Below are positions 2,374 to 60,874 of a stretch of DNA of 64,000 bases, in pieces; positions within the stretch are counted from its first letter, which is position 1, and every line of letters begins with the position of its first letter. Position numbers and translations under genes: made by a program. The stretch comes from Minisyncoccota bacterium (GTDB taxonomy: Bacteria > Patescibacteriota > Minisyncoccia > Phycocordibacterales > UBA9973). The notes beneath the pieces were generated by a model that did not search any database, was not told the DNA's origin, and saw nothing but the letters and a program-made list of their open reading frames with translations. The stretch covers positions 99,263 to 163,262 of the forward strand of contig DALYDY010000002.1 in assembly GCA_031972855.1 (NCBI GenBank), given 5' to 3'.

Positions 2374-3507
2374 ATGCGTATTTTATTTACAGGAGGAGGT
2401 ACTGGAGGACATTTTTATCCTATAATTGCTGTTGCCGAAAAAACAAGTGAAGTAATTTCAAACAGGAAGATTTTAGGAGCAAAGTTGTACTTTATGTCCA
2501 ACTCTCCTTATGACAAAAAAGCTCTTGCTGACAACAATATAAAATATATTTATTCACCAGCAGGTAAGCTTCGTATTTATTTTTCTCTAAAAACAATTAT
2601 TGAAGTAATAAAAATAGGGTTTGGACTCATTACAGCGACAGTAAAAATGTTTTTCATTTATCCTGATGTTATTTTTTCAAAAGGAGGATACGGATCTGTT
2701 CCAGCATTGTTTGCTGCAAGAATTCTTCGTATACCAGTCATTATTCATGAATCAGACTCTTTTCCCGGACGCGTTACTCTTTGGTCTGCAAAATTCGCAA
2801 AGAAAATCGCGATATCATATCAAGAAGCAAGTGTTTTCTTCAAAGAATATGAAGAAAAGGTTGCTTGGACCGGACAACCTATCCGCAAAGAGATTCTTCA
2901 CCCTATCAAAGAGGGGGCAAATGAATTCTTGGGATTAAACAAAGATATACCTACAATATTTATAATAGGAGGATCAACAGGTGCTGTTACAATAAATGAC
3001 GCTGTGTTAAACATACTTCCAGAACTATTAGAAAAATATCAAATCATTCATCAGATAGGTAAGAATAATGTTGCGGATGTAGAAATGAGATTAAAAGTTA
3101 TTCTTGAAGAAAATCCAAACAAAGACCGCTATAAACCCATGGGATGGATAAATCCATTAACAATGAAAATGTCTGCTGGAGTAGCTGATCTAGTAATATC
3201 TCGTGCAGGGTCAACAATATTTGAACTTGCAACATGGGGTATTCCATCTATTATTATTCCAATACCAGAAGAAATCTCTCGTGATCAAAAGAAAAATGCT
3301 TTTGCATATGCTCGTGCAGGTGGATGTATAGTCCTAGAACAAAACAACATAACTCCAAGTGTGTTTTTAAGTACAATAGAAAGCATTATAGATAATCCTG
3401 AAAAAAGTTCTGAATTAAAACTAGCAGCAAAGAGATTCGCTAGAGGAGAAGCATCGCAAACAATAGCTGAAGAAATCGTAGATGTAGCAATGAGTCACTA
3501 CAGATAA
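2374..3507 (+). CDS. murG: undecaprenyldiphospho-muramoylpentapeptide beta-N-acetylglucosaminyltransferase
   Basis: N-terminal MRILFTGGGTGGHFYPIIAV G-loop and GT28 C-terminal domain (GGSTGA…). Confidence 0.9.
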   Translation: MRILFTGGGTGGHFYPIIAVAEKTSEVISNRKILGAKLYFMSNSPYDKKALADNNIKYIYSPAGKLRIYFSLKTIIEVIKIGFGLITATVKMFFIYPDVIFSKGGYGSVPALFAARILRIPVIIHESDSFPGRVTLWSAKFAKKIAISYQEASVFFKEYEEKVAWTGQPIRKEILHPIKEGANEFLGLNKDIPTIFIIGGSTGAVTINDAVLNILPELLEKYQIIHQIGKNNVADVEMRLKVILEENPNKDRYKPMGWINPLTMKMSAGVADLVISRAGSTIFELATWGIPSIIIPIPEEISRDQKKNAFAYARAGGCIVLEQNNITPSVFLSTIESIIDNPEKSSELKLAAKRFARGEASQTIAEEIVDVAMSHYR

Positions 3508-3516
3508 AAACAAAAA

Positions 3517-3554
3517 ATGGGTTTACCTCTGACAGGAAGGTAAACCCATTTTTA
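3517..3554. terminator. bidirectional intrinsic terminator between murG (+) and the 3558..4172 gene (-)
   Basis: Hairpin atgggtttacct…aggtaaacccat flanked by an A-run and a T-run. Confidence 0.6.
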
Positions 3555-3557
3555 GGA

Positions 3558-4172
3558 TTAAGCAATCTTAACCCTAACTTTCTTTTTATTTTTAAAATAA
3601 GACAAATACAATCTAACATCAAACCATACAAGAACGGTAGATATTAAGAATAGTATCGTTCCTACAATATATGGAGGAATTTCTGGAGCGATTTCGTTGT
3701 TTCCATTTTTCAATATCAACAACAAGTGAACAGTACTCGCTAAAACAATAATTGCTGAGACAAAGTACCATAGATACAAGACGGCTTTTTTAATTAATTT
3801 AAAAAAGAGAGAAGAAAGTCTTCTGTCTGAAATAAATTTGTTTAAAGCTTCTTCGATTTCTTTATTTTGTTCAAGAATAAGAACTCCTTTATTTTCAAGT
3901 TTCATCTTTGCTTTTTTTGAGATCCTGTCAAGATCCCAAGTTTCAATCCCATTCTCATCTCTTGGAAAAGTGATAATAATAGAACTGGTGGTAGGTGAGT
4001 GTTCAACTTTTGTTCCTCTCGGAAATTTCCCGAAGAAATGAAGTTGTTGTTTTAATCTCTCTGATGGTTCTAACATTGTATAAGCAATGTATATGAACAC
4101 GGCAATCGAAAAAATAATTAAGACTCCCATAGTTTTATTTGTTTTTTTGTTCAAACATATTATATCACACAA
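3558..4172 (-). CDS. hypothetical membrane protein (2-3 TM)
   Basis: Long ORF with hydrophobic N- and C-terminal segments; no recognisable motif. Confidence 0.5.
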   Translation of the reverse strand: MCDIICLNKKTNKTMGVLIIFSIAVFIYIAYTMLEPSERLKQQLHFFGKFPRGTKVEHSPTTSSIIITFPRDENGIETWDLDRISKKAKMKLENKGVLILEQNKEIEEALNKFISDRRLSSLFFKLIKKAVLYLWYFVSAIIVLASTVHLLLILKNGNNEIAPEIPPYIVGTILFLISTVLVWFDVRLYLSYFKNKKKVRVKIA

Positions 4173-4460
4173 TATATCAATATGTCAATATATAAAACAA
4201 AGCCCGGAATTCAAATGAATTCCGGGTGATGGAGAACTAAAAAATTGATTACAAAATCTATAAATAATTATACGCATATTTATTCAAAATGTAAATAAAT
4301 AACGCCAGGCCCTTTTCAGGTCCTGGCGCGTTGAACAAAAAAAACAGTAATAAAAATTGCTTTAAAAACAAAAGCTATTTTATACCACCTTTCGCTATTG
4401 ATTGTACCACATCAAGACATATAACGCATTTTGTGGAAATCTGCTAGAATATATTTACTT

Positions 4461-5966
4461 ATGTCCGAGAATACAAACCCAAAAATCGTAACCCGTTTTG
4501 CACCTAGTCCTACTGGATATCTCCATGTGGGAGGCCTCCGTACAGCATTATATGCATATCTCATGGCCAAGAAGTCTGGTGGCAGATTCCTACTTCGTAT
4601 TGAAGACACAGATCAAGCTCGCACGGTAGAAGGTGGAGTGGAGAATATCGCTCGCTCTCTTGCTTGGGCTGGAATTATTCCAGATGAAGGAATACAACTC
4701 GATGAAAACGGCGCTATTACAGAGACAGGTCACAATGGACCATACACACAATCATTACGTTTACATCTATACAAAAAGTACGCAGAAGAATTGGTAGAAA
4801 AAGGATTTGCATACCCTTGCTTCTGTAGTTCAGAGCGACTCGAAGAAGTGAAGAACCAAAGACAAGCCGACAAACTACCACCAGGATATGATGGCTTGTG
4901 TAAGACATTATCAAAAGAAGAAGTAGAAGCGAAATTGAAAGCAGGTGACAAACACGTAATTCGTCTCTCTATGCCCGAAGTTGGTGCGAGTGTATTCGAA
5001 GACCTCATTCGCGGAAAAGTTTCTTTTCAATATTCTGATGTAGATGACCAAGTGCTTTTGAAGTCTGACGGATTCCCAACATACCACCTCGCTGTAGTAG
5101 TGGATGATCATCATATGGAAGTCACACATGTGATCCGTGGTGAAGAATGGATTTCTAGCACCCCAAAACACCTCTATCTATATGAATGCTTCGGATGGAA
5201 TGCGCCACACTTCGCACACCTTCCACTTCTTCTAAATTCTGACCGTTCAAAGCTCTCAAAACGCCAAGGTGACGTCGCTGTAATGGATTACAAGGAGAAA
5301 GGATATCTTCCAGAAGCACTTTTGAACTTCGTGGCTTTCTTGGGCTGGAATCCAGGCGACGAAAGAGAACTCTTCACTCTAAAAGAATTAGTGGAAGAGT
5401 TCTCCCTCACAAAAGTGAACAAATCAGGCGCAATTTTCAATCTCGAAAAGCTTGATTGGTACAATCACGAATACTTGAAGAAATTATCTCATGAAGAATT
5501 CGAAAGCTATGTCGACAACTTCATGCCAAGCATTGCAAAGGAGAGTGACAATTACAAAGAAGTCCTCCCAAGACTTCTCGGTACACTTATCGAACGTATA
5601 GAAAAGGGTACAGACATCACAGAGACGTATAAAGAGAATATTTCATATTTCTTCACAAAGCCTGTTTTAGACCCAGGAATCTTTTCATGGAAGGGTCTAA
5701 AAATTAAATACCCAAATTCAGACGAATGCACATCTATATCAAAACAATACCTCGCCGAAGTTCGCGATATTCTCTCAAATCTTGAAGATGACAAGTGGAA
5801 TGACAAAGAGGCGATAAAGGATGCAGTATGGCCTCTCACAGACAAATATGGCCGTGGAGAAGTACTCTGGCCACTCCGTGTAACGCTTTCAGGCCGTGAA
5901 AAATCTCCCGACCCATTTGAACTTTGTTTTATTTTAGGTAAAGAAGAAGTTTTGAGAAGGATTTAA
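4461..5966 (+). CDS. gltX: glutamate--tRNA ligase
   Basis: Class I HIGH motif (PSPTGYLHVGG) and KMSKS motif (KLSKR); start probably at MSENTNPKIV (4461) rather than the 4431 given in the ORF track. Confidence 0.9.
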   Translation: MSENTNPKIVTRFAPSPTGYLHVGGLRTALYAYLMAKKSGGRFLLRIEDTDQARTVEGGVENIARSLAWAGIIPDEGIQLDENGAITETGHNGPYTQSLRLHLYKKYAEELVEKGFAYPCFCSSERLEEVKNQRQADKLPPGYDGLCKTLSKEEVEAKLKAGDKHVIRLSMPEVGASVFEDLIRGKVSFQYSDVDDQVLLKSDGFPTYHLAVVVDDHHMEVTHVIRGEEWISSTPKHLYLYECFGWNAPHFAHLPLLLNSDRSKLSKRQGDVAVMDYKEKGYLPEALLNFVAFLGWNPGDERELFTLKELVEEFSLTKVNKSGAIFNLEKLDWYNHEYLKKLSHEEFESYVDNFMPSIAKESDNYKEVLPRLLGTLIERIEKGTDITETYKENISYFFTKPVLDPGIFSWKGLKIKYPNSDECTSISKQYLAEVRDILSNLEDDKWNDKEAIKDAVWPLTDKYGRGEVLWPLRVTLSGREKSPDPFELCFILGKEEVLRRI

Positions 5967-5970
5967 ATTT

Positions 5971-7107
5971 ATGGAAAAGAAGTCTTCAAATTCAAATTTA
6001 CACAAAGCAAACAAAAATAAAAAAGATGAGTTTTATACTCAACTTTTTGATATTGAAAAAGAATTAAAACATTATAAAGAACAATTTAAAGGTAAAGTTG
6101 TGTATTGTAATTGTGACGACCCATTTGAAAGTAATTTCTTTAAATATTTCGCTTCAAATTTTAATGCATTAGGATTAAAAAGATTGATTGCTACAAGTTA
6201 CAAACCTTCACCAATTGCAAATACCCAGCTCGGACTTTTTGGAGATAATAAAACACTTACTACAGCAAAAGGTCGTCCAAAAAATAATGCTAATAAATTT
6301 ATTATAAATGAAGTTCATGATATAGACAGTGATGGAGCTTTTGATTTACGTGATATTGCAGAACAACTCAAAGCAAATAAAAATAACGAATGGTCACCAA
6401 TGGAAAATGATGGTGATTTTAGAAGTGATGAAAGTATTGAGCTTTTAAAACAGGCAGATATTGTAGTAACAAATCCACCCTTTTCATTGTTTAGGCAGTA
6501 TATTGCACAGCTCGTAGAATACAATAAAAAATTTCTAGTTATCGGAAGTTTAAATGCTGTTAAATATAATTCAATTTTCAAATTAATCAAGAATAATCAA
6601 TGTTGGTTAGGTTATAATAATGGTGCAAAAACTTATTTAGTTCCAAACAATTACGAACAAAAAAATATATTTGTAGGTGAAGATGGAAAAAAATATGCAA
6701 AAATGGGTAACACCTGTTGGTTTACAAATCTTGATATTCAAAAGCGTCATGAATCAATAGTCTTGTATAAAAAATATACAACAGAAGAATATTTTAAATA
6801 TGATAATTATGACGCTATAGAAATTGGAGAACAAAAGAAAAATGGTAATTGGGAAGGTCGAATAGATATTATACCAATGGACTATGAGGGTGTAATGGGA
6901 GTACCTATTACTTTTATTGATAAATATAATCCTGAGCAGTTTGAAGCTTTAGGAGTTTTTGATGATAAAAGAGAAGAGGATGATGCTTTTATACAAGGAG
7001 TACCAACTTATGTTGACGAACAACACAAAAGATATGTTGGTCCTGTTTTAAAAGGAAAAGCTCTTTATACGCGTGTTTTAATTAAAAATAAAAAACCACA
7101 GAAATAA
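5971..7107 (+). CDS. gamma-class N6-adenine DNA methyltransferase (orphan or system-associated)
   Basis: Motif X-like DEFYTQ, motif I-like VYCNCDDPF and motif IV NPPF (VVTNPPFS); starts 4 nt after the gltX stop; very AT-rich. Confidence 0.65.
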   Translation: MEKKSSNSNLHKANKNKKDEFYTQLFDIEKELKHYKEQFKGKVVYCNCDDPFESNFFKYFASNFNALGLKRLIATSYKPSPIANTQLGLFGDNKTLTTAKGRPKNNANKFIINEVHDIDSDGAFDLRDIAEQLKANKNNEWSPMENDGDFRSDESIELLKQADIVVTNPPFSLFRQYIAQLVEYNKKFLVIGSLNAVKYNSIFKLIKNNQCWLGYNNGAKTYLVPNNYEQKNIFVGEDGKKYAKMGNTCWFTNLDIQKRHESIVLYKKYTTEEYFKYDNYDAIEIGEQKKNGNWEGRIDIIPMDYEGVMGVPITFIDKYNPEQFEALGVFDDKREEDDAFIQGVPTYVDEQHKRYVGPVLKGKALYTRVLIKNKKPQK

Positions 7108-7109
7108 AT

Positions 7110-7144
7110 ATGATATATCTTATAATTTATACATGATATATCTT
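7110..7144 (+). promoter_or_regulatory. direct repeat ATGATATATCTT x2 (7110-7121 and 7133-7144) with a TATAAT between, in the 98-bp gap upstream of fic
   Basis: Two identical 12-mers spaced 23 bp apart inside the only intergenic gap of the MTase-Fic-DUF262/HNH-HNH block. Confidence 0.3.
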
Positions 7145-7205
7145 TATATTTTTACTTAAAGTCATAAACCTTGTTTTATAAGTATATTTATTATAATATT
7201 GATAC

Positions 7206-8369
7206 ATGTTAGAAAACCTAAAAGATATATCTCAAATAGAATTAAAAGTTCCAAAACCTGAGTGGAGTAGCGATTTAGCTAATACTATTATAGAGTTAGA
7301 AGCTTTAAGAAAGAGAGAACTTAGAGGGTCTACCCCGATTCATATTTTTTTTGAAATTAAAAATGTATTTCAATTTTTAGAAAGTATTGGTTCTGCTAGA
7401 ATTGAAGGAAATCATACAACTATTTCAGAGTTTGTAGAAAAAATTATTGAGGAAGCAAACCCTAAAAAAGATGAGAGTTTAGCAGAAATATTAAACATTA
7501 ACAAAGCTATTAGTTTTATTAATGATTTTATGTCTAAAGATAAAACCATAGACAAAGCTTTATTATTAGAAATTCATAAAATTGTAGTAAGTGGGTTAAA
7601 TAGAGAAGGTGCTAAAATCATTGGTGATTACAGAAAAGAAAATGTAAACATATCAAACGCTATTGTAAAACCTCCAGAATTTATAAAAGTTAATGAATAC
7701 ATGGATAATTTATTTAATTTTATAAATGAGGTGAATGACAGAGAAAATCATTTACTTAAAGTTGCAATTGCTCATCATTATTTTACAGTAATACACCCTT
7801 TTGATAACGGTAATGGGAGGGTTGTTCGTTTGCTAACTTTCTTAATGTTAATTAAGTATGGTTTTAATATAAAAAATGGAAATATTTTAAATCCAACAGC
7901 AATATTCTGTAATGATAGAAATATTTACTATAAAATGCTATCGGAAGCAGATAATGGAAATATAGAAAATTGGTGTGTATATGTATTATCTGGACTAAAA
8001 GAAGAGATAGATAAAATTGATAGAATAAGTAATATTAAATATATTGTCAAAATTTTTAGTGATGTATTAGAGGATGCTTTAAATAAAAAATATATTGATG
8101 AGTATTTCTATAATGTATTATCGTTAATTATTAAAAATAAAGACATGATTATTTCAGCTGGAGATCTTTCAGTTTTAGATAATATGGACTCTAATCTAAA
8201 ACGATCAAGGATGATTAAAAAACTAAAAGATGCAAAAATGATAAAATCTTTAGGTGGTGAAAAAAGTAGAACATATACTATTACTTTTAATGAAAACTTC
8301 TTACTTAGAAGTTTGATAAAAGTTTTAATAAATGAAAAATTTATACCAGAATCATTGAATACAAAATAA
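7206..8369 (+). CDS. fic: Fic/Doc family protein (AMPylase-type) with Fic_N domain
   Basis: Fic_N motif SARIEGNHTTISEF and canonical Fic active site HPFDNGNGRVVRLL. Confidence 0.85.
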   Translation: MLENLKDISQIELKVPKPEWSSDLANTIIELEALRKRELRGSTPIHIFFEIKNVFQFLESIGSARIEGNHTTISEFVEKIIEEANPKKDESLAEILNINKAISFINDFMSKDKTIDKALLLEIHKIVVSGLNREGAKIIGDYRKENVNISNAIVKPPEFIKVNEYMDNLFNFINEVNDRENHLLKVAIAHHYFTVIHPFDNGNGRVVRLLTFLMLIKYGFNIKNGNILNPTAIFCNDRNIYYKMLSEADNGNIENWCVYVLSGLKEEIDKIDRISNIKYIVKIFSDVLEDALNKKYIDEYFYNVLSLIIKNKDMIISAGDLSVLDNMDSNLKRSRMIKKLKDAKMIKSLGGEKSRTYTITFNENFLLRSLIKVLINEKFIPESLNTK

Positions 8370-8370
8370 A

Positions 8371-9474
8371 ATGAAGATAGATTTACATAAAATAAAAATA
8401 GCTGAAGTTGTAAAAGACTACAAAGACAGTGCTGAGGAAGGTGTTACTGCTTTTGGCGGAAAACTCGATATTCGTCCAAAATATCAAAGAGAATTCGTGT
8501 ACGACACAAAACATCGTGACGAAGTAATTAAAACCGTTAAAAAAGATTTTCCACTCAATGTAATGTATTGGGTTAAAAAAGAAGATGAAAACTTTGAAGT
8601 ACTTGATGGACAACAAAGAACTATTAGTATTGCTCAATTTGTAAATGGAGATTTTTCTATTGATTTTAACGGGAGAATTGCAATGTTCCACAATCTAACA
8701 AAAGAAGAACAAGATCAAATTCTAAATTATGAATTGATGATTTATCACTGTGAAGGACAAGAAAAAGAAAAACTTGACTGGTTCAAGATTATTAATATTG
8801 CAGGAATGGAACTAACACAACAAGAATTAAAAAACGCAGTATATACTGGCTCTTGGCTTTCTGACGCAAAACTCAAATTTAGTAAAACAAATTGTGCTGC
8901 ATATTTACTTGCAAATGATGGCGGACAATTAGTAACAGGATCACCAATCCGTCAGGACTATTTAGAAACTGCATTAACTTGGATAAATAATGAAGATATT
9001 GAAGGTTATATGGCAAAGCATCAGCACGATACAAACGCAGATGAATTATGGCAGTATTTCCAAAATGTAATTCATTGGGCAAGAGAAGTTTTTCCAAATT
9101 ACAGAAAAGAAATGGCGAGTGTAAATTGGGGTGAATTATATAATGAATTTAATAAAAAGAAATTTGATTCATTAAAACTTGAGGAAGAAATTAAAAAATT
9201 AATGCAAGACGAAGATGTAACTAAAAAATCTGGTATTTACCCATATGTTTTAACTCGCAAAGATAGATATCTTTCTATTCGTGCATTTACTCCAAATATG
9301 AAGCGCGAAGCATACGAAAGACAAAATGGTATTTGTTCATCATGTAAAAAAGAATTTTCTATTGGAAATATGGAGGCAGATCATATTGACCCTTGGCACG
9401 AAGGTGGTAAGACTACAACAGAAAATTGTCAGATGTTGTGTAAAGAATGTAATAGAAGAAAGTCAGGAAAATAA
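8371..9474 (+). CDS. DUF262 (ParB/Srx-like NTPase) fused to an HNH nuclease; GmrSD-like type IV restriction architecture
   Basis: N-terminal DUF262 signature LDGQQRTISI; C-terminal HNH (CSSCKK…ADHIDPWHEGG…NCQMLCKECNRRK); start 2 nt after the fic stop. Confidence 0.75.
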   Translation: MKIDLHKIKIAEVVKDYKDSAEEGVTAFGGKLDIRPKYQREFVYDTKHRDEVIKTVKKDFPLNVMYWVKKEDENFEVLDGQQRTISIAQFVNGDFSIDFNGRIAMFHNLTKEEQDQILNYELMIYHCEGQEKEKLDWFKIINIAGMELTQQELKNAVYTGSWLSDAKLKFSKTNCAAYLLANDGGQLVTGSPIRQDYLETALTWINNEDIEGYMAKHQHDTNADELWQYFQNVIHWAREVFPNYRKEMASVNWGELYNEFNKKKFDSLKLEEEIKKLMQDEDVTKKSGIYPYVLTRKDRYLSIRAFTPNMKREAYERQNGICSSCKKEFSIGNMEADHIDPWHEGGKTTTENCQMLCKECNRRKSGK

Positions 9475-9476
9475 AT

Positions 9477-9854
9477 ATGAAAAGAGATAGTATTCCTACT
9501 GATATAAAACGAGCTGTTTTGGTTGAGGCAGGTCATCGTTGTGCTATTCCAACATGTCGCGCTACTACAACTGAAATTGCTCATATTATTCCTTGGTCTG
9601 AAACACAAGACAATTCATTTATTAATTTAATTGCACTTTGCCCTACATGTCATACAAGATTCGATCAAAAAAAAGAAATTGATCGTCTTTCAATTAAGAT
9701 GTACAAACACAATCTTGGTATATTAAATAATCGTTACGGTGAATTTGAACGTAGATTGTTTGAGTATTTAGCAGTTTCAGGAGAAAGAGTTTTTGTCGTT
9801 GGTGCTGGAGGAGATTTACTTGTTGCAAATGGAGTAAAGGATGGTTTTTTTTGA
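9477..9854 (+). CDS. small HNH endonuclease; frame is interrupted at a T8 tract and may extend to 9998
   Basis: HNH motif CAIPTCRATTTEIAHIIPWSE…NLIALCPTCHTRFD; starts 3 nt after the upstream stop; TGA at 9852-9854 lies inside T8 (9845-9852); the +1 frame stays open for 48 more codons to 9998. Confidence 0.65.
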   Translation: MKRDSIPTDIKRAVLVEAGHRCAIPTCRATTTEIAHIIPWSETQDNSFINLIALCPTCHTRFDQKKEIDRLSIKMYKHNLGILNNRYGEFERRLFEYLAVSGERVFVVGAGGDLLVANGVKDGFF

Positions 9855-10035
9855 AGACAAAAAAGTTGGTGGAATGGACTTAGCTATTTCTACTAGTAGT
9901 GGTTTTAAAAGAAACTTCCCAATGTCTTTTACTTATTGGGTTACAGATGTTGGTGTTGATTTTATTAAGCGATATGCAGATGGTAAAGATATTGAATAAT
10001 AACTTGATTAAGAATTTGTATAAAAAATAAATAAA

Positions 10036-10692
10036 ATGCTCCAAAAACTAAAAATCCCACTATTTGCAATATTGTTCTCACTATCATTCATTTTGATTTG
10101 GAAAGTATTGAAGCTTCCATCGGACGAAGTAATGATTGAACTTGCACGTGGATGCTTCCTAAAATACGGATTCATCACCGTACTTATCGCCGCTATTATC
10201 GAAAGTATGCTTGTGGTGGGATGGTATCTACCAGGAGGGATTGTAATATTCTCTGGTGTCATACTCGCGTCAGGTCATCCATATCTCGCAATATTGTCTG
10301 TATCAGCGACAATCATCGGCTGTACTATCGGCTACACCGCGAACTATTTCCTCGGGAAATATGGCTGGTACAAATTATTCACCAAATTTGGATTGTCCAA
10401 GTCTCTCACTGAAGCCGAAATACAATTCGCAAAGTATGGATACAAGGCGATGTATATGTCGTATTGGCAGCCCAATCTCGCAGCTCTCATATCTACTTGT
10501 GCCGGAATTACAAAAGCACCATTCTGGAAATTCTTCCTCTCTTCTTTTACTGCGACAATACTCTGGTCAATATTCTGGGGAAGTTCGACATATATTCTCG
10601 GTGAGAAAATTCTGTCATATTTGGGAATTGTATTCTTTGGAATAATGATAGGGTGGATAGGATATATAGTCTATAAGAATTATAGGAAATAA
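10036..10692 (+). CDS. DedA/SNARE-associated family membrane protein
   Basis: DedA-type motif region GFITVLIAAIIESMLVVGWYLPGG; multiple TM segments. Confidence 0.7.
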   Translation: MLQKLKIPLFAILFSLSFILIWKVLKLPSDEVMIELARGCFLKYGFITVLIAAIIESMLVVGWYLPGGIVIFSGVILASGHPYLAILSVSATIIGCTIGYTANYFLGKYGWYKLFTKFGLSKSLTEAEIQFAKYGYKAMYMSYWQPNLAALISTCAGITKAPFWKFFLSSFTATILWSIFWGSSTYILGEKILSYLGIVFFGIMIGWIGYIVYKNYRK

Positions 10693-10709: not shown

Positions 10710-11159
10710 ATGAACGACGCACAACAAAAATTACAATCTGCTATGGCATACGCGATCAAAAATCGTCCAAAGGTTGGAGGGTTTCCATTTCTTGCTGAAT
10801 GTCTAAGGAAGGCTGGTGTTAAGAAAAATATTTGGTCACTTCCTAGTGCCGAGAGTATCTATATCACAAAAGAAGGCTCTCTAGTAAAGCCTGGTGTACC
10901 TTTGGTGTCTGAAATGACACCTGTACCAGACTTCGACAAAGAAGCACTCGTCAAAGCTCTCCAAAAAGATCAAGCGGGTGAAAGCACATTTCCAGAATTC
11001 CTACTCGCTACATGGAATGCAGGAGTTGTGAGCTATGAAGTGGACTTCATAGAACGTACAGTGTCATACCGTGGCGCTCTCGGTGAAGAATATGTAGAAT
11101 CATATCCAAAAGTAGAAGTGGGCAAAGATGACGATCTGGATATACTTATGTTTGTATAA
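10710..11159 (+). CDS. hypothetical protein (possibly DUF1398-like)
   Basis: Soluble 149-aa ORF; its 3' end overlaps the next gene by 32 nt. Confidence 0.45.
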   Translation: MNDAQQKLQSAMAYAIKNRPKVGGFPFLAECLRKAGVKKNIWSLPSAESIYITKEGSLVKPGVPLVSEMTPVPDFDKEALVKALQKDQAGESTFPEFLLATWNAGVVSYEVDFIERTVSYRGALGEEYVESYPKVEVGKDDDLDILMFV

Positions 11160-11682
11160 ATACCTACTATATAATAATTTTATGACTAAGTTTTATATAT
11201 TTATTTCGATAATGATTGGTGCTATTTTATTTATAAAATTATTAGGTGAGAATTCCTCTAAAAAAGAAAAAGTTAAACCTCTTTATAAATACAAAAAGAA
11301 AGACTTCTTAATCACTCGCCCTGAACATGAATTTTTTGATATTCTTGTTGAAATTCTTGGTGATAAATATCATGTATTCACTCAAGTACATTTACCAACA
11401 ATTCTTGACCATAAAGTACCTAATGGCCAAAATTGGAAAGGGGCTTTTAGTCATATAAATGGAAAGTCTGTTGATTTTGTTATTTGTGACAAAGATTATA
11501 TAAAACCACTACTCGCTATCGAGCTAGATGACAAGAGTCATGAAAGAGAAGATAGAATATTACGTGATAGTGAAGTAGAGAGAATGATGGAAGAATCTGG
11601 AATGAAACTTGTACGTTTCGAGAATCATGGTAATTTTGATAAAGAAGAGATAAGAAAAACTATTTTAGAAAAGTTAAATTAG
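11128..11682 (+). CDS. DUF2726 (restriction-endonuclease-like fold) protein with an N-terminal TM anchor
   Basis: N-terminal hydrophobic helix, then the DUF2726-like core SVDFVICDKDYIKPLLAIELDDKSHEREDR. Confidence 0.6.
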   Translation: MTIWIYLCLYKYLLYNNFMTKFYIFISIMIGAILFIKLLGENSSKKEKVKPLYKYKKKDFLITRPEHEFFDILVEILGDKYHVFTQVHLPTILDHKVPNGQNWKGAFSHINGKSVDFVICDKDYIKPLLAIELDDKSHEREDRILRDSEVERMMEESGMKLVRFENHGNFDKEEIRKTILEKLN

Positions 11683-23502: not shown

Positions 23503-24657
23503 ATGAACAAAGTTAAAATACTTGTATTGTTCACTGTTTTTATAGATATTATTGGTATAGGAGTAATAATACCGACACTACCTTTCTATGTTGAATCTTT
23601 TGGTGTTTCTGATACTGTTGTAGCTCTTCTCTTTTCAATATACGCTTTCCTTTCTTTTTTATCTGCACCATTTTTAGGTTTAATTTCTGATAGATATGGA
23701 AGAAGACCAGTCTTAATTATAAGCATTCTAAGTAGTGCTATTGGATGGATTGTTTTTGCTGGAGCAAAAAATATATGGTTATTATTTTTAGGAAGAAGTA
23801 TTGACGGAATAGCTGCGGGAAATATTTCAACAGCACAAAGCTCTCTTTCTGATATATCTAAAAACAGCACAGAAAGATCTACTAATATGGGCTTAATAGG
23901 TGCAATGTTTGGTATAGGTCTTATTATAGGGCCATTGATTGGAGGATTGTTAAGTGTTTATGGAAATACTGCACCATTTTGGTTTGTTGGAATACTATCT
24001 TTAATAAATACAATATTGGCATACTTTTTTTTACCTGAAACACACAAAGAAAGAACTAATACAAAAATAAAAATAAACCCAATAAGTCCAATAATAGATG
24101 GTTTTAAAAATATTGAAATGAGAAAAATTTTCTTAATATTTTTCTCATTTGGATTAGCAATAACGATACAACAAACTATATTTGGATTATATACAGCAAG
24201 AGCTTTTGGTTTTAACTCTAAAACAATAGGAATGGTTATGGGTTTTATTGGATTTATTATATTAATAAATCAACTTTTTCTTCTAAAAAATGTTTGGTTA
24301 AAAATTTGGAATAATAAAATACTTACAAAGGTTATGTTTTTTATACTTGCAACAGGAATGATTATTAGCTCACTTAAAATTATTGCTTTATTTTTTATTG
24401 GGATAATTTTAACCACAATAAGTCAAAGTAATCTAAGAGGCACCTTAATGAGTACCATTGCAGGTCAAAACAAAGAAAAAACAGGTGAGTACATAGGAAT
24501 ATCAACATCAATAATGTCACTGTCTATGATATTAGGGCCATTACTTGCTTCGGCTGTTTATATAATAAACATATCTATTCCATTTATTTTAGCTGGAATA
24601 ATATCATTATTATGCATACCAATATACATAAACATTATAAAAAAAATTAATATTTAA
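23503..24657 (+). CDS. MFS transporter
   Basis: 12-TM topology with MFS motif GLISDRYGRRP; start likely at MNKVKILVL (23503). Confidence 0.75.
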   Translation: MNKVKILVLFTVFIDIIGIGVIIPTLPFYVESFGVSDTVVALLFSIYAFLSFLSAPFLGLISDRYGRRPVLIISILSSAIGWIVFAGAKNIWLLFLGRSIDGIAAGNISTAQSSLSDISKNSTERSTNMGLIGAMFGIGLIIGPLIGGLLSVYGNTAPFWFVGILSLINTILAYFFLPETHKERTNTKIKINPISPIIDGFKNIEMRKIFLIFFSFGLAITIQQTIFGLYTARAFGFNSKTIGMVMGFIGFIILINQLFLLKNVWLKIWNNKILTKVMFFILATGMIISSLKIIALFFIGIILTTISQSNLRGTLMSTIAGQNKEKTGEYIGISTSIMSLSMILGPLLASAVYIINISIPFILAGIISLLCIPIYINIIKKINI

Positions 24658-24672
24658 TATATAATAAAATAC

Positions 24673-25773
24673 ATGATATTTATAATATTTATAACAATAG
24701 CTCAACTTTTCCTTTTTCTAATACATTACATAATTTATCGTTTTGGAATTCAAGAATTTTATTTACTAGAAAAACATAAAATATTTTTTGGAACAATAAT
24801 TTTCATACTTTCATTTTCTTATAGTGCAAGTATGTTTTTGATTAGATTAAGTGAAAATACTCTAACAAAGATATTTAATCAAATATCTTCAATATGGCTT
24901 GGTACTATAGTTTGGGTCTTTATTGTAATAATAATATCTCTTATTTTAAAAAGAATACTCAATAATACATATAGTTCAAATATTTCATTGATACTTATTT
25001 TGATATCTTTTGGAATATCATTATTTGGAATATATAACTCACAAAGAGTTAATCTTGTAGAAAAAGATGTTTATATTGAAAACTTGCCAGAAAATTTTGA
25101 TAATTTGAGTGTTATGTTTATTGCAGATACTCATTACGGCAATATTCATACAGAAAAGAAATCAAGCAGAGATGTAGAATTTATAAAAAAAGTATCACCA
25201 GATGCACTATTTATTGCTGGGGATTTCTTTGATGGACCATCAAAGAAAATGGATTATTTTTCAAAACCTTATGAAGAAATGAATCCTATATTTGGGAAAT
25301 ATTTTGTAAGTGGAAATCACGAAACTTATGCGGACCTTGAAAAGAGTATAGAGTCAGTAAAAAAAGTAAATTTTGAAATTCTAGACAATCAAATAAAAGA
25401 AATAAAAGGTATTCAATTTGTTGGCATACCTTATAGTACGAGTAGTGTATCAGAATTAGATAAAAATATAACTGAAAGTATTATTAAAAAATCAGACGAA
25501 ACAAAGCCTGTTATTGTCATAAAACATGTGCCAATAAACACAGAATCTATTAGCAACTTGAATGCAGATTTTGCATTTTTTGGACATACACACAGAGGAC
25601 AAATGTGGCCTTTTAGTATAATAGTGAAAAAAATATATGGAAAACATTATTATGGATTTACAGAAGAAAAAAATACATTATTTTATACAACAAGTGGAGT
25701 GGGTGGTTGGGGACCAATACAAAGAATTGGAACAAATAGTGAAATGTTGTTAGTGCGTTTCCATAAAAAATAA
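24673..25773 (+). CDS. membrane-anchored metallophosphoesterase (calcineurin-like)
   Basis: N-terminal TM helices; MFIADTHYG…GDFFD…GNHE…GHTH motifs. Confidence 0.75.
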   Translation: MIFIIFITIAQLFLFLIHYIIYRFGIQEFYLLEKHKIFFGTIIFILSFSYSASMFLIRLSENTLTKIFNQISSIWLGTIVWVFIVIIISLILKRILNNTYSSNISLILILISFGISLFGIYNSQRVNLVEKDVYIENLPENFDNLSVMFIADTHYGNIHTEKKSSRDVEFIKKVSPDALFIAGDFFDGPSKKMDYFSKPYEEMNPIFGKYFVSGNHETYADLEKSIESVKKVNFEILDNQIKEIKGIQFVGIPYSTSSVSELDKNITESIIKKSDETKPVIVIKHVPINTESISNLNADFAFFGHTHRGQMWPFSIIVKKIYGKHYYGFTEEKNTLFYTTSGVGGWGPIQRIGTNSEMLLVRFHKK

Positions 25774-25787
25774 AGTCCTCACATAAA

Positions 25788-26072
25788 TTATGTGAGGACT
25801 AACAACAAAATAAATATAGGAATAAAATACATTAATACTCCTATTAATAAGTGTTTCAACGATATAGAAAAGTATTTTCTTATTATATAAGTACCAGTTA
25901 AAAATATTGATATTAATAAAAAGAGACCCATAATAAGTACTGCTATAGTTTTTTCATTTTCAATATTTTTTGGAACCCAATATGTATTAAATAAAAAATA
26001 CAGAACAATAGAGAGAGAAGCGAAATAACAAATTATCCCAAAAGTTCTAAATAACCACGAATTGTTTTTCAT
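25788..26072 (-). CDS. small membrane protein
   Basis: Three hydrophobic segments; ORF only. Confidence 0.4.
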   Translation of the reverse strand: MKNNSWLFRTFGIICYFASLSIVLYFLFNTYWVPKNIENEKTIAVLIMGLFLLISIFLTGTYIIRKYFSISLKHLLIGVLMYFIPIFILLLVLT

Positions 26073-26191
26073 AAGATCAAAATAAATTTATTTTATAATA
26101 CATCAAAATATATAGTGAGTCAAATTTAAACAACAAGATTAATTAAAATTATAAATTTTTTATATTCAAACAAATCAACTATAATAAGAGT

Positions 26192-26395
26192 ATGAAAAAA
26201 CTATACAGAAGCAGTGAAAACAAAATATATAAAGGAATACTAGGTGGAATTGGTGAATACTTCGAAATAGACCCGACCTTAATAAGAGTTTTATATATGT
26301 TTTTTACAATAACATCAGGTATTATTCCAGGAATGTTGGCATACTTCTTATCTTTACTAATTGTTCCAAAAAAACCACAAATTGAAATACTTTAG
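26192..26395 (+). CDS. PspC-domain protein
   Basis: KLYRSSENKIYKGILGGIGEYFEIDPTLIRVLYMFFT matches the PspC domain. Confidence 0.7.
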   Translation: MKKLYRSSENKIYKGILGGIGEYFEIDPTLIRVLYMFFTITSGIIPGMLAYFLSLLIVPKKPQIEIL

Positions 26396-26521
26396 TGAAA
26401 AAATATATTTTTATATATCAAAAAAAATACAATAAAATAAAACATTTTGTATTGAAATGGAACATATTGACTCTAATATAAATAAGAGTAGAATAACACA
26501 AGACCAAAAAAACTAAATAGC

Positions 26522-26953
26522 ATGACAACACAAGCAGTACCAGTAAAGAACTGTATTCTATTAGTAATAGAGAACAGTAACGGAAAAATTTTCATGAAAA
26601 TTGAAAAATCAGAAAAATATGGAGGGGAAGTAATTAAATTTTTGTCACACAAAAAAGAGTGCAACAAAACTTTTACTCAAGAAGACGAGGGGAAACTTTT
26701 AAAAGAAACCATCGAGTTATATTTTAAAAACCAAGTAAGCGCGGACGCTTTCCAAAAAATAAATACCTTATCCAAAGAGAATAATGTATTTCACGTATAC
26801 AAAACTGTACTAAAAAAGCAGGTCAACGTAATAGGTTCAAGAATCCATCTTGTTGATAGAAAAAAACTTAATGGAAAAAATTCTATTGAAGTTTGCCACA
26901 CTCCATGTCTGGTAACAGATTCGACAAAAGATATCATTATTGCATATATGTAG
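26522..26953 (+). CDS. hypothetical protein
   Basis: ORF only. Confidence 0.4.
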   Translation: MTTQAVPVKNCILLVIENSNGKIFMKIEKSEKYGGEVIKFLSHKKECNKTFTQEDEGKLLKETIELYFKNQVSADAFQKINTLSKENNVFHVYKTVLKKQVNVIGSRIHLVDRKKLNGKNSIEVCHTPCLVTDSTKDIIIAYM

Positions 26954-27055
26954 AAAGCCTTAAAAGGGCTTTTTTTATTTTTAAAATATATTATTTAATT
27001 GTCAATAGAAAGAAAAAGTTTTAAATACACGTATAATATAAAGTAGAGTCATTAT

Positions 27056-27628
27056 ATGGATATATACAAGACACTTACAGACAGTGAGCTTATTAATTTG
27101 AGTTTAAAAAATTCAGAGGCTTTTGGTATTATTGTCGAAAGATATAATGAAAAACTATCAAAATATATAAAAAGACGTTCACATGCATCAAAACAAGACA
27201 TAGAAGATATATTACAAAACGTTTTTATTAAAATATACAAGAATATGAATGATTATGATGAAAATCTAAACTTTTCATCATGGATATATAGAATAACTTA
27301 CAACGAACTCATTGATTGGTATAGAAAGGACAAAACAAGATCTACTCTTTCTCTTGATGATACAGATATTGGAATTCTAGAAAAAATATCAGAAGAAACT
27401 TACGAAGAGATATTAAAAAAAATTGATAAACAAAAAGAAAAAGAATTAATAGAAAAGTCTCTCGAAAAAATAAAACCAAATTACAAAGAAATAATAATAT
27501 TAAAATATTTTGAAGATAGGAGTTATGAAGAAATAAGTGATATTTTAAAAATACCAATAGGAACAGTTGCTACTTGGGTAAGTAGAGCAAAAAATGAGCT
27601 AAAAAAGATAATAGAAAAAGAAAAATAA
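27056..27628 (+). CDS. ECF-type RNA polymerase sigma-70 factor
   Basis: Region 2 (FIKIYKNM…WIYRITYNELIDWYRK) and region 4 HTH (YEEISDILKIPIGTVATWVSRAKNELKK). Confidence 0.8.
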   Translation: MDIYKTLTDSELINLSLKNSEAFGIIVERYNEKLSKYIKRRSHASKQDIEDILQNVFIKIYKNMNDYDENLNFSSWIYRITYNELIDWYRKDKTRSTLSLDDTDIGILEKISEETYEEILKKIDKQKEKELIEKSLEKIKPNYKEIIILKYFEDRSYEEISDILKIPIGTVATWVSRAKNELKKIIEKEK

Positions 27629-27629
27629 T

Positions 27630-28451
27630 ATGGATAATTTAACTGAAAAAATAATAAACAAAATAAAAGAAAATGAAGTAAAACCTGTTCCTAGGTGGCA
27701 TTTTGTAATTAAAAGAATATTTTTATGGGTGCCAGGAATAATCTGTACATTAATAGGTGGTATATCAGTATACGCAATCATGTACGGAACTAGTCATAAT
27801 GGGTGGGAATTTAGAAGATTTACACATCAATCAAATTATGAATTTTTAGTTGATACTCTTCAATATATTTGGATATTATCTTTTGTATTATTTTATATAT
27901 TTACAATAAATCTAATAAGAATAACAAAGGATGGATATAAGTATAAAATATCATCTATATTATTAATTAGTTTTTTAACTAGTGTAATAATTGGAACTTC
28001 TGTATTTATTTTGATAAATACTAGCACAATGAAATATTCCTTTGGTTTTGAAGGTCAAATAAAGAATGAACAACGATTGCACTGGTCTTTTCCAGAAAAA
28101 GGTAGGGTTTTAGGATTAATAACAGATATAAAAGAAAATAATTATATTATTGTAAAAGATCAGGAAGGTAATGAATGGAATTTAAATATAGAACAAATAC
28201 CTGCTGATATAAAAAATAATATAGAGGAAGGGGATATTATTAGGGTTTTGGGTGAAATAACAGAAAAAAATAATTTTACTGCGTGTGCTATATTTCCTTG
28301 GGATTTTGAAAATGAATTAGAAATAAGAAACAAGCCTTCAAAAAAAGAATTTAGAAAAAATGTTATTAGAAAAGGTGAAAAAGAAAGAATTATTGACCAA
28401 TGCAAAAAATTTGATCTATTTAACAAAAGTGAAATAAAAATACATCTATAA
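27630..28451 (+). CDS. membrane protein downstream of the ECF sigma (putative anti-sigma factor)
   Basis: Starts 2 nt after the sigma-factor stop; TM helices after a short cytoplasmic N-terminus. Confidence 0.45.
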   Translation: MDNLTEKIINKIKENEVKPVPRWHFVIKRIFLWVPGIICTLIGGISVYAIMYGTSHNGWEFRRFTHQSNYEFLVDTLQYIWILSFVLFYIFTINLIRITKDGYKYKISSILLISFLTSVIIGTSVFILINTSTMKYSFGFEGQIKNEQRLHWSFPEKGRVLGLITDIKENNYIIVKDQEGNEWNLNIEQIPADIKNNIEEGDIIRVLGEITEKNNFTACAIFPWDFENELEIRNKPSKKEFRKNVIRKGEKERIIDQCKKFDLFNKSEIKIHL

Positions 28452-36275: not shown

Positions 36276-37622
36276 TTATCTCTTAGATACTCCGTATTGT
36301 TTCAAGTAATTAATATCTGCTTGAATACTATCCTTTAATTTCATAACGCTTCTACCATAAGAACAATTTGATCCTCCTGTACCATAATATTTACAAGCAG
36401 CTTTTATTTCAGAAGTAGAACTACCCTGTCTTGCTCCAAGTTGAGTCAAATAAAGAGCTGAGGCCGTAAAAGCATCACGAGCTGACCATGGATTTGCAGA
36501 ACCTGTAATTGCTTTAACTTTTTCATCAAATATTTGCCATGTTGAAGGAATAAATTGAGCAGGACCCATCGCGCCACCATATCCAGCAACCCCGGCAATA
36601 GGACAAGACACAGCTGTTTTTGACCAATCAAAACCAAGAGAACTAACAATATTCAAAAATGGTTTTACATCTCTAGTCGGTTTCATAAGATTTGGCCAAA
36701 CTTTTCCTCCAGTACTTATACCAGCACCTGTTGTAGTATCAGTAAGGAAACACTTACCAACATTTGCTCCAAGTCTCGATTCTTGAGTCAGGATAGCAAG
36801 AACAAAGGCAGGGTCAACTCCTGTACTTCTAGACGCATCTTCAGCATATCCAAGTGCCACATCAAATCTAATTGCTTGAGAACCTCCAGCAAGATTAAAG
36901 AGTCTTGCCTTAATTTCTGTTACTCTTTTTTGTCTTTCTGCAACTTCTTTTTGATAAGCAGATTCTTTGTCTTTACTAATCGCAAGTAATTTCTTCTTTT
37001 CTGACTCACTTTTTTCTACTTGTTTTTTTTGACCCTCCAAAAGAACCTTTGCATCAACTTGATCATCTTTGTTATCTTGTAAATTTTTCTTTTCTTCTTC
37101 AGTGTCAGCTTTTACAATCTTAATACTATCCACAGCTGATTTTACAGATTTTTTTAGAGACGCAAAAGAGTCTAAATCTTGATAAAAATCAGAAACACTT
37201 TCATTTGATAAAAGCATGTACACAACATTTTCTTGACTCAAATCATTTGTCTTTTTTAATAGTTGAGTTAGAGAATCCTTTGATATATCTAATTTATCTT
37301 CCAAAACACCAATAGTCTTTGTTCTACTATTTATTTCTTTTGACAATTTATCAATCAAAAGATTTTTTGATTTAATTTTTGTTTTTGCTAAATTAATCTG
37401 ACTAGTAAGTAAATCAACATCTTTTTTAATAGTTCCTGACTGTTTTCTTTGTTCATTTAATTGAGCTTCTTTTTGAGCTATTTCTTTTTCTAAAGCTTGA
37501 AGTTCAGAATAAAGACGAGCTCTATCTTCTTCTGAAGTTTGAGCAAATACAAAGTGAGTACTTGTAAAAAGCACTACGAAAATCATTATTGGTATAACTA
37601 AACGCTTTATAAACATAGACAT
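36276..37622 (-). CDS. coiled-coil protein with a C-terminal lytic transglycosylase (SLT) domain
   Basis: Signal/TM, long coiled coil, then AILTQESRLGA…AMGPAQFIPSTW (SLT catalytic-Glu and GxMQFxPsTw motifs). Confidence 0.7.
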   Translation of the reverse strand: MSMFIKRLVIPIMIFVVLFTSTHFVFAQTSEEDRARLYSELQALEKEIAQKEAQLNEQRKQSGTIKKDVDLLTSQINLAKTKIKSKNLLIDKLSKEINSRTKTIGVLEDKLDISKDSLTQLLKKTNDLSQENVVYMLLSNESVSDFYQDLDSFASLKKSVKSAVDSIKIVKADTEEEKKNLQDNKDDQVDAKVLLEGQKKQVEKSESEKKKLLAISKDKESAYQKEVAERQKRVTEIKARLFNLAGGSQAIRFDVALGYAEDASRSTGVDPAFVLAILTQESRLGANVGKCFLTDTTTGAGISTGGKVWPNLMKPTRDVKPFLNIVSSLGFDWSKTAVSCPIAGVAGYGGAMGPAQFIPSTWQIFDEKVKAITGSANPWSARDAFTASALYLTQLGARQGSSTSEIKAACKYYGTGGSNCSYGRSVMKLKDSIQADINYLKQYGVSKR

Positions 37623-60661: not shown

Positions 60662-60874
60662 ATGGAAAAATTAATTTTTTGTTTAAAAGAAAGTTGGAAA
60701 TTTAGACTCGCGCTTATTATTTGGATTATTATATTCTCAATAATAGTTAACACTACTCACACCGAAGATAAGGTGGTATTATCAGAAATATACGAATATT
60801 GTGTTCTCCCATTTACGTGTACAAGTACAATAATATTGATATATCTTATATACTATCGGAAACAGCCCATATAA
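60662..60874 (+). CDS. small membrane protein
   Basis: Two TM helices; ORF only. Confidence 0.35.
   Translation: MEKLIFCLKESWKFRLALIIWIIIFSIIVNTTHTEDKVVLSEIYEYCVLPFTCTSTIILIYLIYYRKQPI

Follow-up and report, generated by a model that had tools for sequence, protein, structure and literature searches.

Four co-directional genes stand between gltX and dedA in a stretch of DNA from a Minisyncoccota bacterium (Patescibacteriota; NCBI GenBank assembly GCA_031972855.1, contig DALYDY010000002.1, positions 99,263 to 163,262 of the forward strand). The whole stretch that was analysed, 64,000 nucleotides in length, is called the window below. The genes encode an adenine methyltransferase, a Fic protein, a DUF262 domain fused to an HNH nuclease, and a second, small HNH protein, and an earlier note on this DNA took them together as a candidate composite system of defence or restriction. 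Is there one four-gene system at this locus, or do elements of different kinds lie side by side? We consider it probable that the block is a horizontally acquired two-gene restriction-modification (R-M) module, formed by the methyltransferase gene (M) and the DUF262-HNH gene (R), with a Fic gene embedded in it and an unrelated, broken HNH gene (gene 4) behind R.

The genes of the block

The features of the block are given below with their positions in the window.

5971-7107, plus strand: M, an N6-adenine DNA methyltransferase of the EcoRI_methylase family, 378 amino acids (aa); modification half of the R-M pair (Pfam PF13651)
7108-7205, plus strand: control region of the Fic cassette, 98 nucleotides (nt), GC content 0.143, with TGATATATC boxes
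7206-8369, plus strand: Fic, a CccR/SoFic-type AMPylase with a predicted C-terminal helix-turn-helix (HTH) domain, 387 aa; embedded cargo gene (homology to PDB 7xux; Pfam Fic)
8371-9474, plus strand: R, a DUF262 (ParB-like NTPase) domain fused to an HNH nuclease, 367 aa; restriction half of the R-M pair (Pfam GmrSD_N and HNH)
9477-9999, plus strand: gene 4, a frameshifted stand-alone HNH gene (Pfam HNH, 2.1e-08, and HNH_2); outside the R-M system

A check of the open reading frames (ORFs) agreed with the earlier note in their positions, their common direction and their tight spacing: 4 nt separate gltX from M, 98 nt M from Fic, 1 nt Fic from R and 2 nt R from gene 4. Profile searches also bore out its domain calls for all four genes.

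A widespread restriction-modification pair

What do the methyltransferase and the DUF262-HNH protein have to do with each other? Both match catalogued families from end to end. M matches the Pfam family EcoRI_methylase over its full length (PF13651, 2.4e-132, 1-345/345) and the PADLOC profile MTase_II likewise (PDLC03297, 8.8e-116), and its catalytic motif NPPF is intact at residues 168-171. R matches the PADLOC profile REase_II over 1-372/372 (PDLC03418, 2.5e-130), and in Pfam it splits into GmrSD_N/DUF262 (PF03235, 4.4e-18) and HNH (PF01844, 1.7e-13, at 322-365). The motifs of R are DGQQR at 79-83, DH at 337-338, N352 and N361, and the two CxxC pairs at 322-325 and 357-360. All of them, the DGQQR, the DH...N...N of the HNH site and the Cys pairs, are invariant in an alignment of 28 homologues, so the catalytic residues that had been called for in R are present. 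In NCBI the two proteins carry the names 'adenine-specific methyltransferase EcoRI family protein' and 'DUF262 domain-containing protein'. Thus the supposition that the parts were undescribed did not hold: besides the full-length matches of M and R to MTase_II and REase_II, the Fic protein matches the SoFic profile.

More than 8000 homologues of R were found. The best 120 are 75-100% identical to it and all 363-381 aa long except one of 343 aa, and the named ones among these 120 come mostly from metagenome-assembled genomes of Patescibacteria, the candidate phyla radiation (CPR). For the genomic context of R one genome per species was scanned, which gave 394 relatives; the best 80 were examined, and 81 non-redundant loci resulted. 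Of the 81 loci, 78 carry a same-strand homologue of M directly upstream of R, and in the remaining three R is within about 900 nt of a contig end. M also directly precedes R in all eight viral contigs from IMG/VR (R 56-74% identical), and in these eight loci neither Fic nor the second HNH gene is present. Phages or prophages may help to spread this R-M family. The pair is further found on plasmids of cultured bacteria, for example pMiCAN82a of Macrococcoides canis. The M-R family is very widespread and unusually conserved, above all in the genomes of Patescibacteria/CPR. The proposed link of a methyltransferase with a DUF262-HNH protein thus stands as a real conserved pair.

Does R cut unmodified DNA, or might it be a modification-dependent enzyme of the GmrSD kind, with the methyltransferase as an unrelated or orphan neighbour? 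The earlier note had compared it with the Type IV enzymes GmrSD, SspE and BrxU. R does have in common with them an N-terminal DUF262 domain, the DGQQR motif and a His-Me-finger nuclease, and there is a weak match to the PADLOC profile mREase_IV (3.3e-05) and a match to McrA (PDB 6ghc) through the HNH part only. The likeness ends with the DUF262 domain. GmrSD, BrxU and SspE have a DUF1524 nuclease and a long helical linker and measure about 600 aa or more, while R has neither of these; it carries the zinc-binding HNH of PF01844 and, with only 367 aa, is about half their size. No sequence-level match to the BrxU or SspE structures was obtained, even by profile, and the best full-length match of R is the Type II endonuclease profile. 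M is the neighbour of R, usually abutting it, at 78 of the 81 genome loci and at all 8 viral loci, and the constant upstream methyltransferase argues that R is blocked by modification and not dependent on it. A Type IV function of R is for these reasons very improbable.

A slot between M and R

In the window the Fic gene separates M from R. Is this the usual arrangement? M abuts R in 42 of the 78 loci, of which 33 share an identical offset of 4 nt in the tblastn comparison. In 34 of the 78 (about 44%) there are 211-1940 nt of co-directional coding sequence between the two genes. The proteins encoded there fall into more than 20 unrelated sequence clusters. T5orf172 proteins were found in five loci, RhuM in four and Bro-N in four; other cargo consists of a trypsin-like protease, an AAA_15/AAA_21 OLD-like ATPase, DUF2130, and several families of membrane or coiled-coil proteins that Pfam does not match. 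Some of the cargo matches PADLOC profiles of candidate or known defence genes, namely PDC-S05 (8.9e-145), PDC-S13 (2.7e-112), PDC-S57 (2.2e-56) and an Old/AriA/GajA-like profile (5.3e-50). The M-R junction is thus a recurrent slot for accessory genes, and Fic is one such cargo.

The junction itself is highly regular. Almost without exception, the gene in front of R, whatever it is, closes with an A-rich stretch and a stop codon, and after 1 nt the ATG of R follows (...AAAAATAAtATGAAAATAGA...). Nearly all arrangements would thus preserve a translational coupling to R.

How could so many different genes have come into the same position? One locus, L088, shows it. Here an ORF of 35 aa (2245-2352) consists of a 45-nt copy of the 5' end of R, followed by a copy of the 3' end of M (AAAAAACCACAAAAATAG). 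An older cargo gene lies on one side of these copies and the Fic cassette on the other, with the Fic boxes, described below, immediately after the copy of M. Such partial copies of R and M are recombination scars, and they show that cargo was stacked by exchange between related operons.

The Fic protein and its control region

What kind of Fic protein occupies the slot in the window? It matches the Pfam family Fic (4.4e-18), with the motif HPFDNGNGRVVR at residues 197-208. Over its full length it is homologous to CccR (PDB 7xux, 9.2e-83), with residues 11-382 aligned to 7-379 of CccR. An inhibitory-helix motif of class II, (S/T)xxxE(G/N), is found as SARIEGN at 63-69 and is aligned to that of CccR. 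The alignment reaches residue 382 of 387, and the HTH domain of CccR lies at 276-380, so that the window Fic is predicted to carry a C-terminal HTH DNA-binding domain as well. The PADLOC profile SoFic matches over 53-358 (2.2e-50), while the score against the NCBIfam SoFic equivalog NF046030 is 68.7 bits with a cut-off of 550; the protein is therefore SoFic-like and not a SoFic equivalog. From the solved SoFic and EcSofic structures it is distant (PDB 3eqx and 3zcn, about 2e-10; 9vjc, 5.5e-12).

The 98 nt before Fic form the only wide gap in the block, and they contain two TGATATATC boxes (7111-7119 and 7134-7142), whose palindrome is GATATATC. A related third box, TGATACATG, lies across the Fic start codon at 7200-7208, and GATATATC occurs again within the first Fic codons at 7224-7231. 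In the whole window TGATATATC is found 5 times, with 0.65 expected. With these boxes the gap before Fic is no mere spacer. The double box is kept upstream of Fic in four further loci, L086, L088, L091 and the Type I locus L092, and is degenerate in L019; it was not found in 100 other loci searched. Since the double box occurs only upstream of this Fic clade, the cassette appears to consist of operator/promoter and Fic and to travel as a unit. CccR provides a precedent: its C-terminal HTH represses its own promoter by means of two spaced palindromes (PMC9755527).

Three further exact TGATATATC boxes lie outside the control region, at 23850-23858, 37281-37289 and 60837-60845. The box at 60837 lies between genes, and the sequence that extends it, TGATATATCTTATATAC, is similar to box 1; the Fic HTH domain might recognise it as a further target, or chance alone might account for it.

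Fic genes beside restriction genes

Is the position of Fic before R an accident of this one genome? About a dozen contexts were examined from the side of Fic. Only five other protein clusters are at least 79% identical to the window Fic. Three contexts in this range are readable, and all three are M-...-Fic-R operons whose surroundings are unlike those of the window. Close orthologues of Fic occupy the M-R junction in at least four different genomic contexts; in the window, L019, L086 and L088 the Fic gene has the strand of M and R. A 62% homologue is found in the order M-DUF4145-Fic-R, where R is again a DUF262-HNH protein, only 36% identical. A 59% homologue is found in a Type I setting, hsdS-ORF-Fic-hsdR, and of four relatives sampled at about 50% identity two show the order hsdS-Fic-small ORF-hsdR. 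Thus in every readable R-M context this Fic clade stands just 5' of the restriction gene, be it a DUF262-HNH R or a Type I hsdR. In the DUF262-HNH loci and in L092 the spacing between Fic and the restriction gene is again a stop codon, 1 nt and ATG. A metagenome scan with exact peptide patterns of Fic gave only one irrelevant locus, L085, of 21% identity.

Two Type I loci differ in the junction. In L097 (5199-5384) and L108 (5198-5386) Fic and hsdR are separated by an ORF of 61-62 aa, possibly an AS1-like antitoxin of the kind reported behind EcSofic (PMC12249575); the window lacks an ORF of this sort. In L086, DpnI-like and GIY-YIG genes follow the M-Fic-R genes.

The broken HNH gene and the neighbouring genes

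Does the second HNH gene belong to the system? The earlier note read it as one ORF, which proved not to be the case. A +1 frameshift in a run of T splits the gene into two ORFs, 9477-9854 (125 aa) and 9841-9999 (52 aa).

9845-9852, plus strand: T8 homopolymer, where gene 4 loses its frame; T7 would restore an ORF of 173 aa

When one T is removed, the resulting 173-aa protein has more than 100 intact homologues of 173 aa at 75-85% identity. The frameshift is also present in an independent Logan assembly of the same sequence (L001). The HNH motif itself is there (CAIPTC, AHIIP, CPTCH). Intact relatives come from Campylobacterales, Burkholderia, Desulfobulbaceae and others, and the gene adjoins none of the 80 related genome loci, none of the 8 viral loci and none of the loci derived from Fic.

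A relative of gene 4 that is 83% identical occurs in eight places (L099-L106; in L099 at 3501-4022), in arrays of small co-directional ORFs. The arrays include ParE and BrnT/CopG toxin-antitoxin genes and no R-M genes, and in several of these loci an integrase gene (Phage_integrase and Phage_int_SAM_4) lies beside the array on the opposite strand. They look like integron-like cassette arrays. Gene 4 is probably a pseudogene, a mobile and unrelated passenger. With its frameshift and its relatives in cassette arrays, it is placed outside any functional model of the block.

The same comparison bears on the proposal that all four genes form an obligate composite system, possibly helped by NUDIX, MazG, EVE and DUF2726 genes nearby. 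The genes are indeed co-directional and tightly packed, and all have domains of the defence type. Apart from L001, a second assembly of this very sequence, no examined locus has all four; the second HNH gene carries a frameshift, and its family is found in integron-like arrays of unrelated bacteria; and Fic occupies the slot in only one of 78 loci. As for the helpers, the DUF2726, NUDIX, MazG and EVE genes were confirmed 1-19 kb downstream, among housekeeping genes, and more than 100 related loci hold no homologue of any of them, so that no nearby gene recurs and no conserved linkage supports their part in the system. We therefore regard a four-gene system as extremely unlikely. What remains of the earlier proposal is the M-R pair together with a linkage to Fic that is no one-off and yet optional; the second HNH gene drops out.

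A detail of the neighbourhood may be added. The genes for DUF1398 (10710-11159) and DUF2726 (11128-11682) are ORFs overlapping by 32 nt. The DUF2726 protein has weak matches to the restriction-endonuclease-like families MTES_1575 and DUF559, and no PADLOC match.

Base composition and flanks

Has the block been acquired from elsewhere? It is bounded by two housekeeping genes outside the system.

4431-5966, plus strand: gltX, glutamyl-tRNA synthetase; upstream flank (Pfam tRNA-synt_1c, 1.5e-104, and Anticodon_2)
10036-10692, plus strand: dedA, a membrane protein with a VTT domain; downstream flank (Pfam VTT_dom, 6.6e-14)

The GC content of the block is 0.286, compared with 0.418 in gltX and 0.396 in dedA, and its GC content at third codon positions is 0.15-0.20, compared with 0.36-0.42 in the flanks. 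Because both values are far below those of the flanks, a foreign origin of the block is plausible. The block is thus more AT-rich than gltX and dedA, as the earlier note had it; among equal-sized stretches of the window it lies only at the 12th percentile, and the region at 24-28 kb is lower still. A repeat search found no flanking direct or inverted repeats at the borders of the block. On the whole, the view of the locus as one of restriction or defence with a deviant base composition was supported.

The stretch of lowest GC content in the window (about 0.25, below that of the block) is 24001-28000. It holds a metallophosphoesterase gene (24673-25773) and ORFs without a Pfam match, and may be another acquired region. 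In a contig of Parcubacteria type (L110, 53-5197) the order murG-gltX is the same as in the window, and a Fic gene 48% identical to that of the window lies about 2.5 kb downstream of gltX, with no R-M genes beside it. The stretch that follows gltX may be a site of recurring variation within this lineage.

Proposed mechanism and its rivals

How might the parts work together? M would methylate adenine within a target sequence on the host DNA and so protect it, and R would cut unmethylated incoming DNA with its HNH site, the DUF262 NTPase domain probably gating or moving the nuclease. Fic, like CccR, would use its HTH domain to bind its own boxes and would set the transcription of the Fic-R unit, while the stop-N-ATG junction would couple translation of R to that of Fic. 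The AMPylase would normally be held off by the inhibitory helix. When restriction fails, Fic may act as a second-line effector that arrests growth, in the manner of abortive infection; this role is suggested because of the precedents of PrrC/EcoprrI and of DarTG2 in Type I systems and of the 2013 proposal on Fic/Doc and RhuM (PMC3710099, PMC12255303).

There are a number of observations that weigh against the reading of the block as an R-M module with an embedded Fic gene, and they concern the pair first. R is more conserved than M, with a mean pairwise identity of 0.81 versus 0.67 over 70 M-R loci and R ahead of M in 98% of the locus pairs. The length of M varies from 306 to 424 aa across loci, with a variable C-terminal third. 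The DUF262 NTPase domain is not typical of ordinary Type IIP enzymes. Both this domain and the stronger conservation of R are atypical when set against textbook Type II enzymes, the latter being unusual for a classical Type II pair. Since the NTPase motif in R is invariant, R is probably not a simple Mg-only Type IIP enzyme, and an atypical use of nucleoside triphosphates is suggested. Avoidance of palindromes, examined for 4-mers and 6-mers, revealed no clearly depleted site; the lowest ratios are 0.68 for TCGA and 0.72 for ACGT in the window and 0.68 for GGCC in the 80 loci. The AlphaFold2 model of R is poor, with a mean predicted local distance difference test score (pLDDT) of 54.9 and a predicted template modelling score (pTM) of 0.35, from a shallow alignment of 28 sequences at 75-88% identity. 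A scan of the AT-rich DNA for promoters and terminators gave the same counts as shuffled sequence. The remaining points concern Fic. It was found in the slot in 1 of the 78 loci, namely L019, where Fic is 79%, M 80% and R 84% identical to those of the window. Its motif has N in place of D/E at position 5 of HxFx(D/E)GNGRxxR; CccR, an active AMPylase, aligns there with HPFGNGNGR and has N at the same position. The other two of the four sampled relatives at about 50% identity are outside R-M operons. In L086 (6166-7269; L087 is the same) an in-frame stop near codon 114 interrupts R, which is read as two ORFs of 113 and 245 aa, with M and Fic intact, and Fic can therefore persist without R.

An explanation of the variable C-terminal third of M was tried, in which target-recognition domains are swapped against a constant R. 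It was not supported, as the variation lies in loops between conserved blocks. Comparison of R with solved structures, by single sequence and by profile, gave matches only through the HNH motif and none for the DUF262 part, and M has no relative in the PDB by sequence.

Is Fic then more than a passenger? One may suppose that the R-M pair, Fic and the dead HNH gene are independent neighbours, separate selfish or defence elements at a permissive site. Fic would then be a SoFic-like abortive-infection gene that stands alone, or a mere toxin-regulator passenger, which finds a safe and transcribed harbour at the M-R junction and has no interplay with restriction. Such a view would account for a slot that accepts many unrelated genes and is empty in 42 of 78 loci, for a Fic gene that owns its control region, for the relatives at about 50% identity outside R-M operons, and for the intact Fic beside the interrupted R of L086; SoFic has also been reported as a single-gene system (PADLOC SoFic; PMC12249575). 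It accounts less well for the regularity of the association. The Fic clade stands 5' of three R backgrounds, a DUF262-HNH protein of 83-88% identity, one of 36% and Type I hsdR, and the junction of stop, 1 nt and ATG is constant in the DUF262-HNH and L092 loci, with a small ORF in L097 and L108. This is more regular than a random harbour would be. That Fic is a mere passenger is possible, and on balance we think it unlikely.

At the other end is the idea that Fic is mainly a controller, a large analogue of the C proteins of Type II systems, which times or limits the expression of R in a new cell and for which AMPylation is secondary or serves for sensing. Classical C proteins measure about 80-100 aa, have an Xre-type HTH and no enzymatic domain, and are encoded directly 5' of R, with repeated palindromic operators upstream of their own gene. 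The window resembles these systems in having an HTH gene directly 5' of R, probably coupled to it in translation, and repeated upstream palindromes. At least two palindromic boxes are kept across orthologues, even into a Type I context, and CccR is a proven autorepressor that uses two palindromes. The differences are equally clear, since Fic is a 387-aa fusion of AMPylase and HTH and most members of the R-M family lack such a gene. More than half of the M-R loci have no slot gene at all, most cargo has no HTH, and simple autorepression would give no delay of R relative to M. What is more, the Fic catalytic motif and the inhibitory helix are conserved, and therefore the enzymatic activity is likely to be under selection. 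A role chiefly as controller thus seems doubtful to us.

A further reading would combine both functions with the slot. In this the M-R junction of a very common CPR restriction system serves as a socket of the plug-in kind, its stop-N-ATG coupling fixed, through which dozens of unrelated defence candidates are swapped as related operons recombine, and the Fic-HTH clade is a bifunctional controller and toxin specialised for restriction operons. With its own double operator it would insert immediately 5' of a nuclease gene, be it a DUF262-HNH R or a Type I hsdR, and take over the transcription and translation of that gene, and the AMPylase, kept back as an abortive-infection effector, would fire when restriction is blocked. 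We put this forward tentatively, as a joint proposal that is rather improbable as a whole. The simpler reading, an acquired M-R module with an embedded Fic gene and a broken HNH gene behind it, is the one that we prefer.

Relation to known systems

How does the locus compare with systems already described? The nearest is the Type II family of PADLOC/REBASE (PDLC03297 and PDLC03418), which both window proteins match end to end. M followed by an abutting R is the norm of this family, and the window differs from it in that the Fic cassette separates the two. In the literature we found no characterised DUF262-HNH Type II enzyme, no pairing of DUF262 with an EcoRI-family methylase and no recognition site.

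On the side of Fic, CccR of Yersinia pseudotuberculosis (PDB 7XUX) shares with the window protein full-length homology, the N in the motif, the inhibitory helix, the HTH domain and two spaced palindromes. CccR is described as a type VI secretion system effector which AMPylates Thr8 of FtsZ, a residue said to be conserved only in Enterobacteriaceae (PMC9755527). Unlike the window Fic, it is not reported inside an R-M operon. With the single-gene anti-phage defences SoFic and EcSofic (PMC12249575) the window protein has a common architecture, that is, a class II auto-inhibited Fic domain together with a C-terminal domain. EcSofic is reported to have an AS1-like small antitoxin ORF downstream, and the window Fic has none because R starts 1 nt after it.

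The combination of a Fic gene with R-M genes, which the earlier note did not recognise from any described system, has published parallels. Fic/Doc and RhuM toxins have been reported nested in R-M neighbourhoods (PMC3710099), and DarTG2 between hsdS and hsdR (PMC12255303). The principle of 'guilt by embedding', by which defence genes nest within R-M and other systems, is likewise known (bioRxiv 10.1101/2024.01.29.577857). As in the paradigm of PrrC/EcoprrI and DarTG2, an optional gene of the toxin type is nested in the window between modification and restriction genes. The published cases of embedding that we read about concern Type I R-M, BREX, DISARM and Hma, whereas here a Type II-like pair of two genes, mostly in CPR, is the host, with one precise slot and a conserved stop-N-ATG coupling.

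Implications

What does this mean for the annotation of the locus and for its family? Each part belongs to a catalogued family, and the principle of nesting is already published. We did not find in the literature a description of a DUF262-HNH/EcoRI-family R-M system dominating in CPR, of its single coupled slot, or of the operator-bearing CccR-like Fic clade. The block is best annotated as a Type II-like R-M pair with an embedded SoFic/CccR-like gene and an HNH pseudogene, and not as a four-gene system.

Within Patescibacteria, the DUF262-HNH protein and its EcoRI-family methylase rank with the most conserved and most widespread modules of the R-M kind. The cargo of their slot carries 'guilt by embedding' beyond Type I, BREX and DISARM to a system of two genes, and several uncharacterised families in the slot are candidates for defence. 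Finally, a Fic clade with a conserved operator that stands 5' of diverse restriction genes offers a route to test how an AMPylase-repressor may be wired to restriction.

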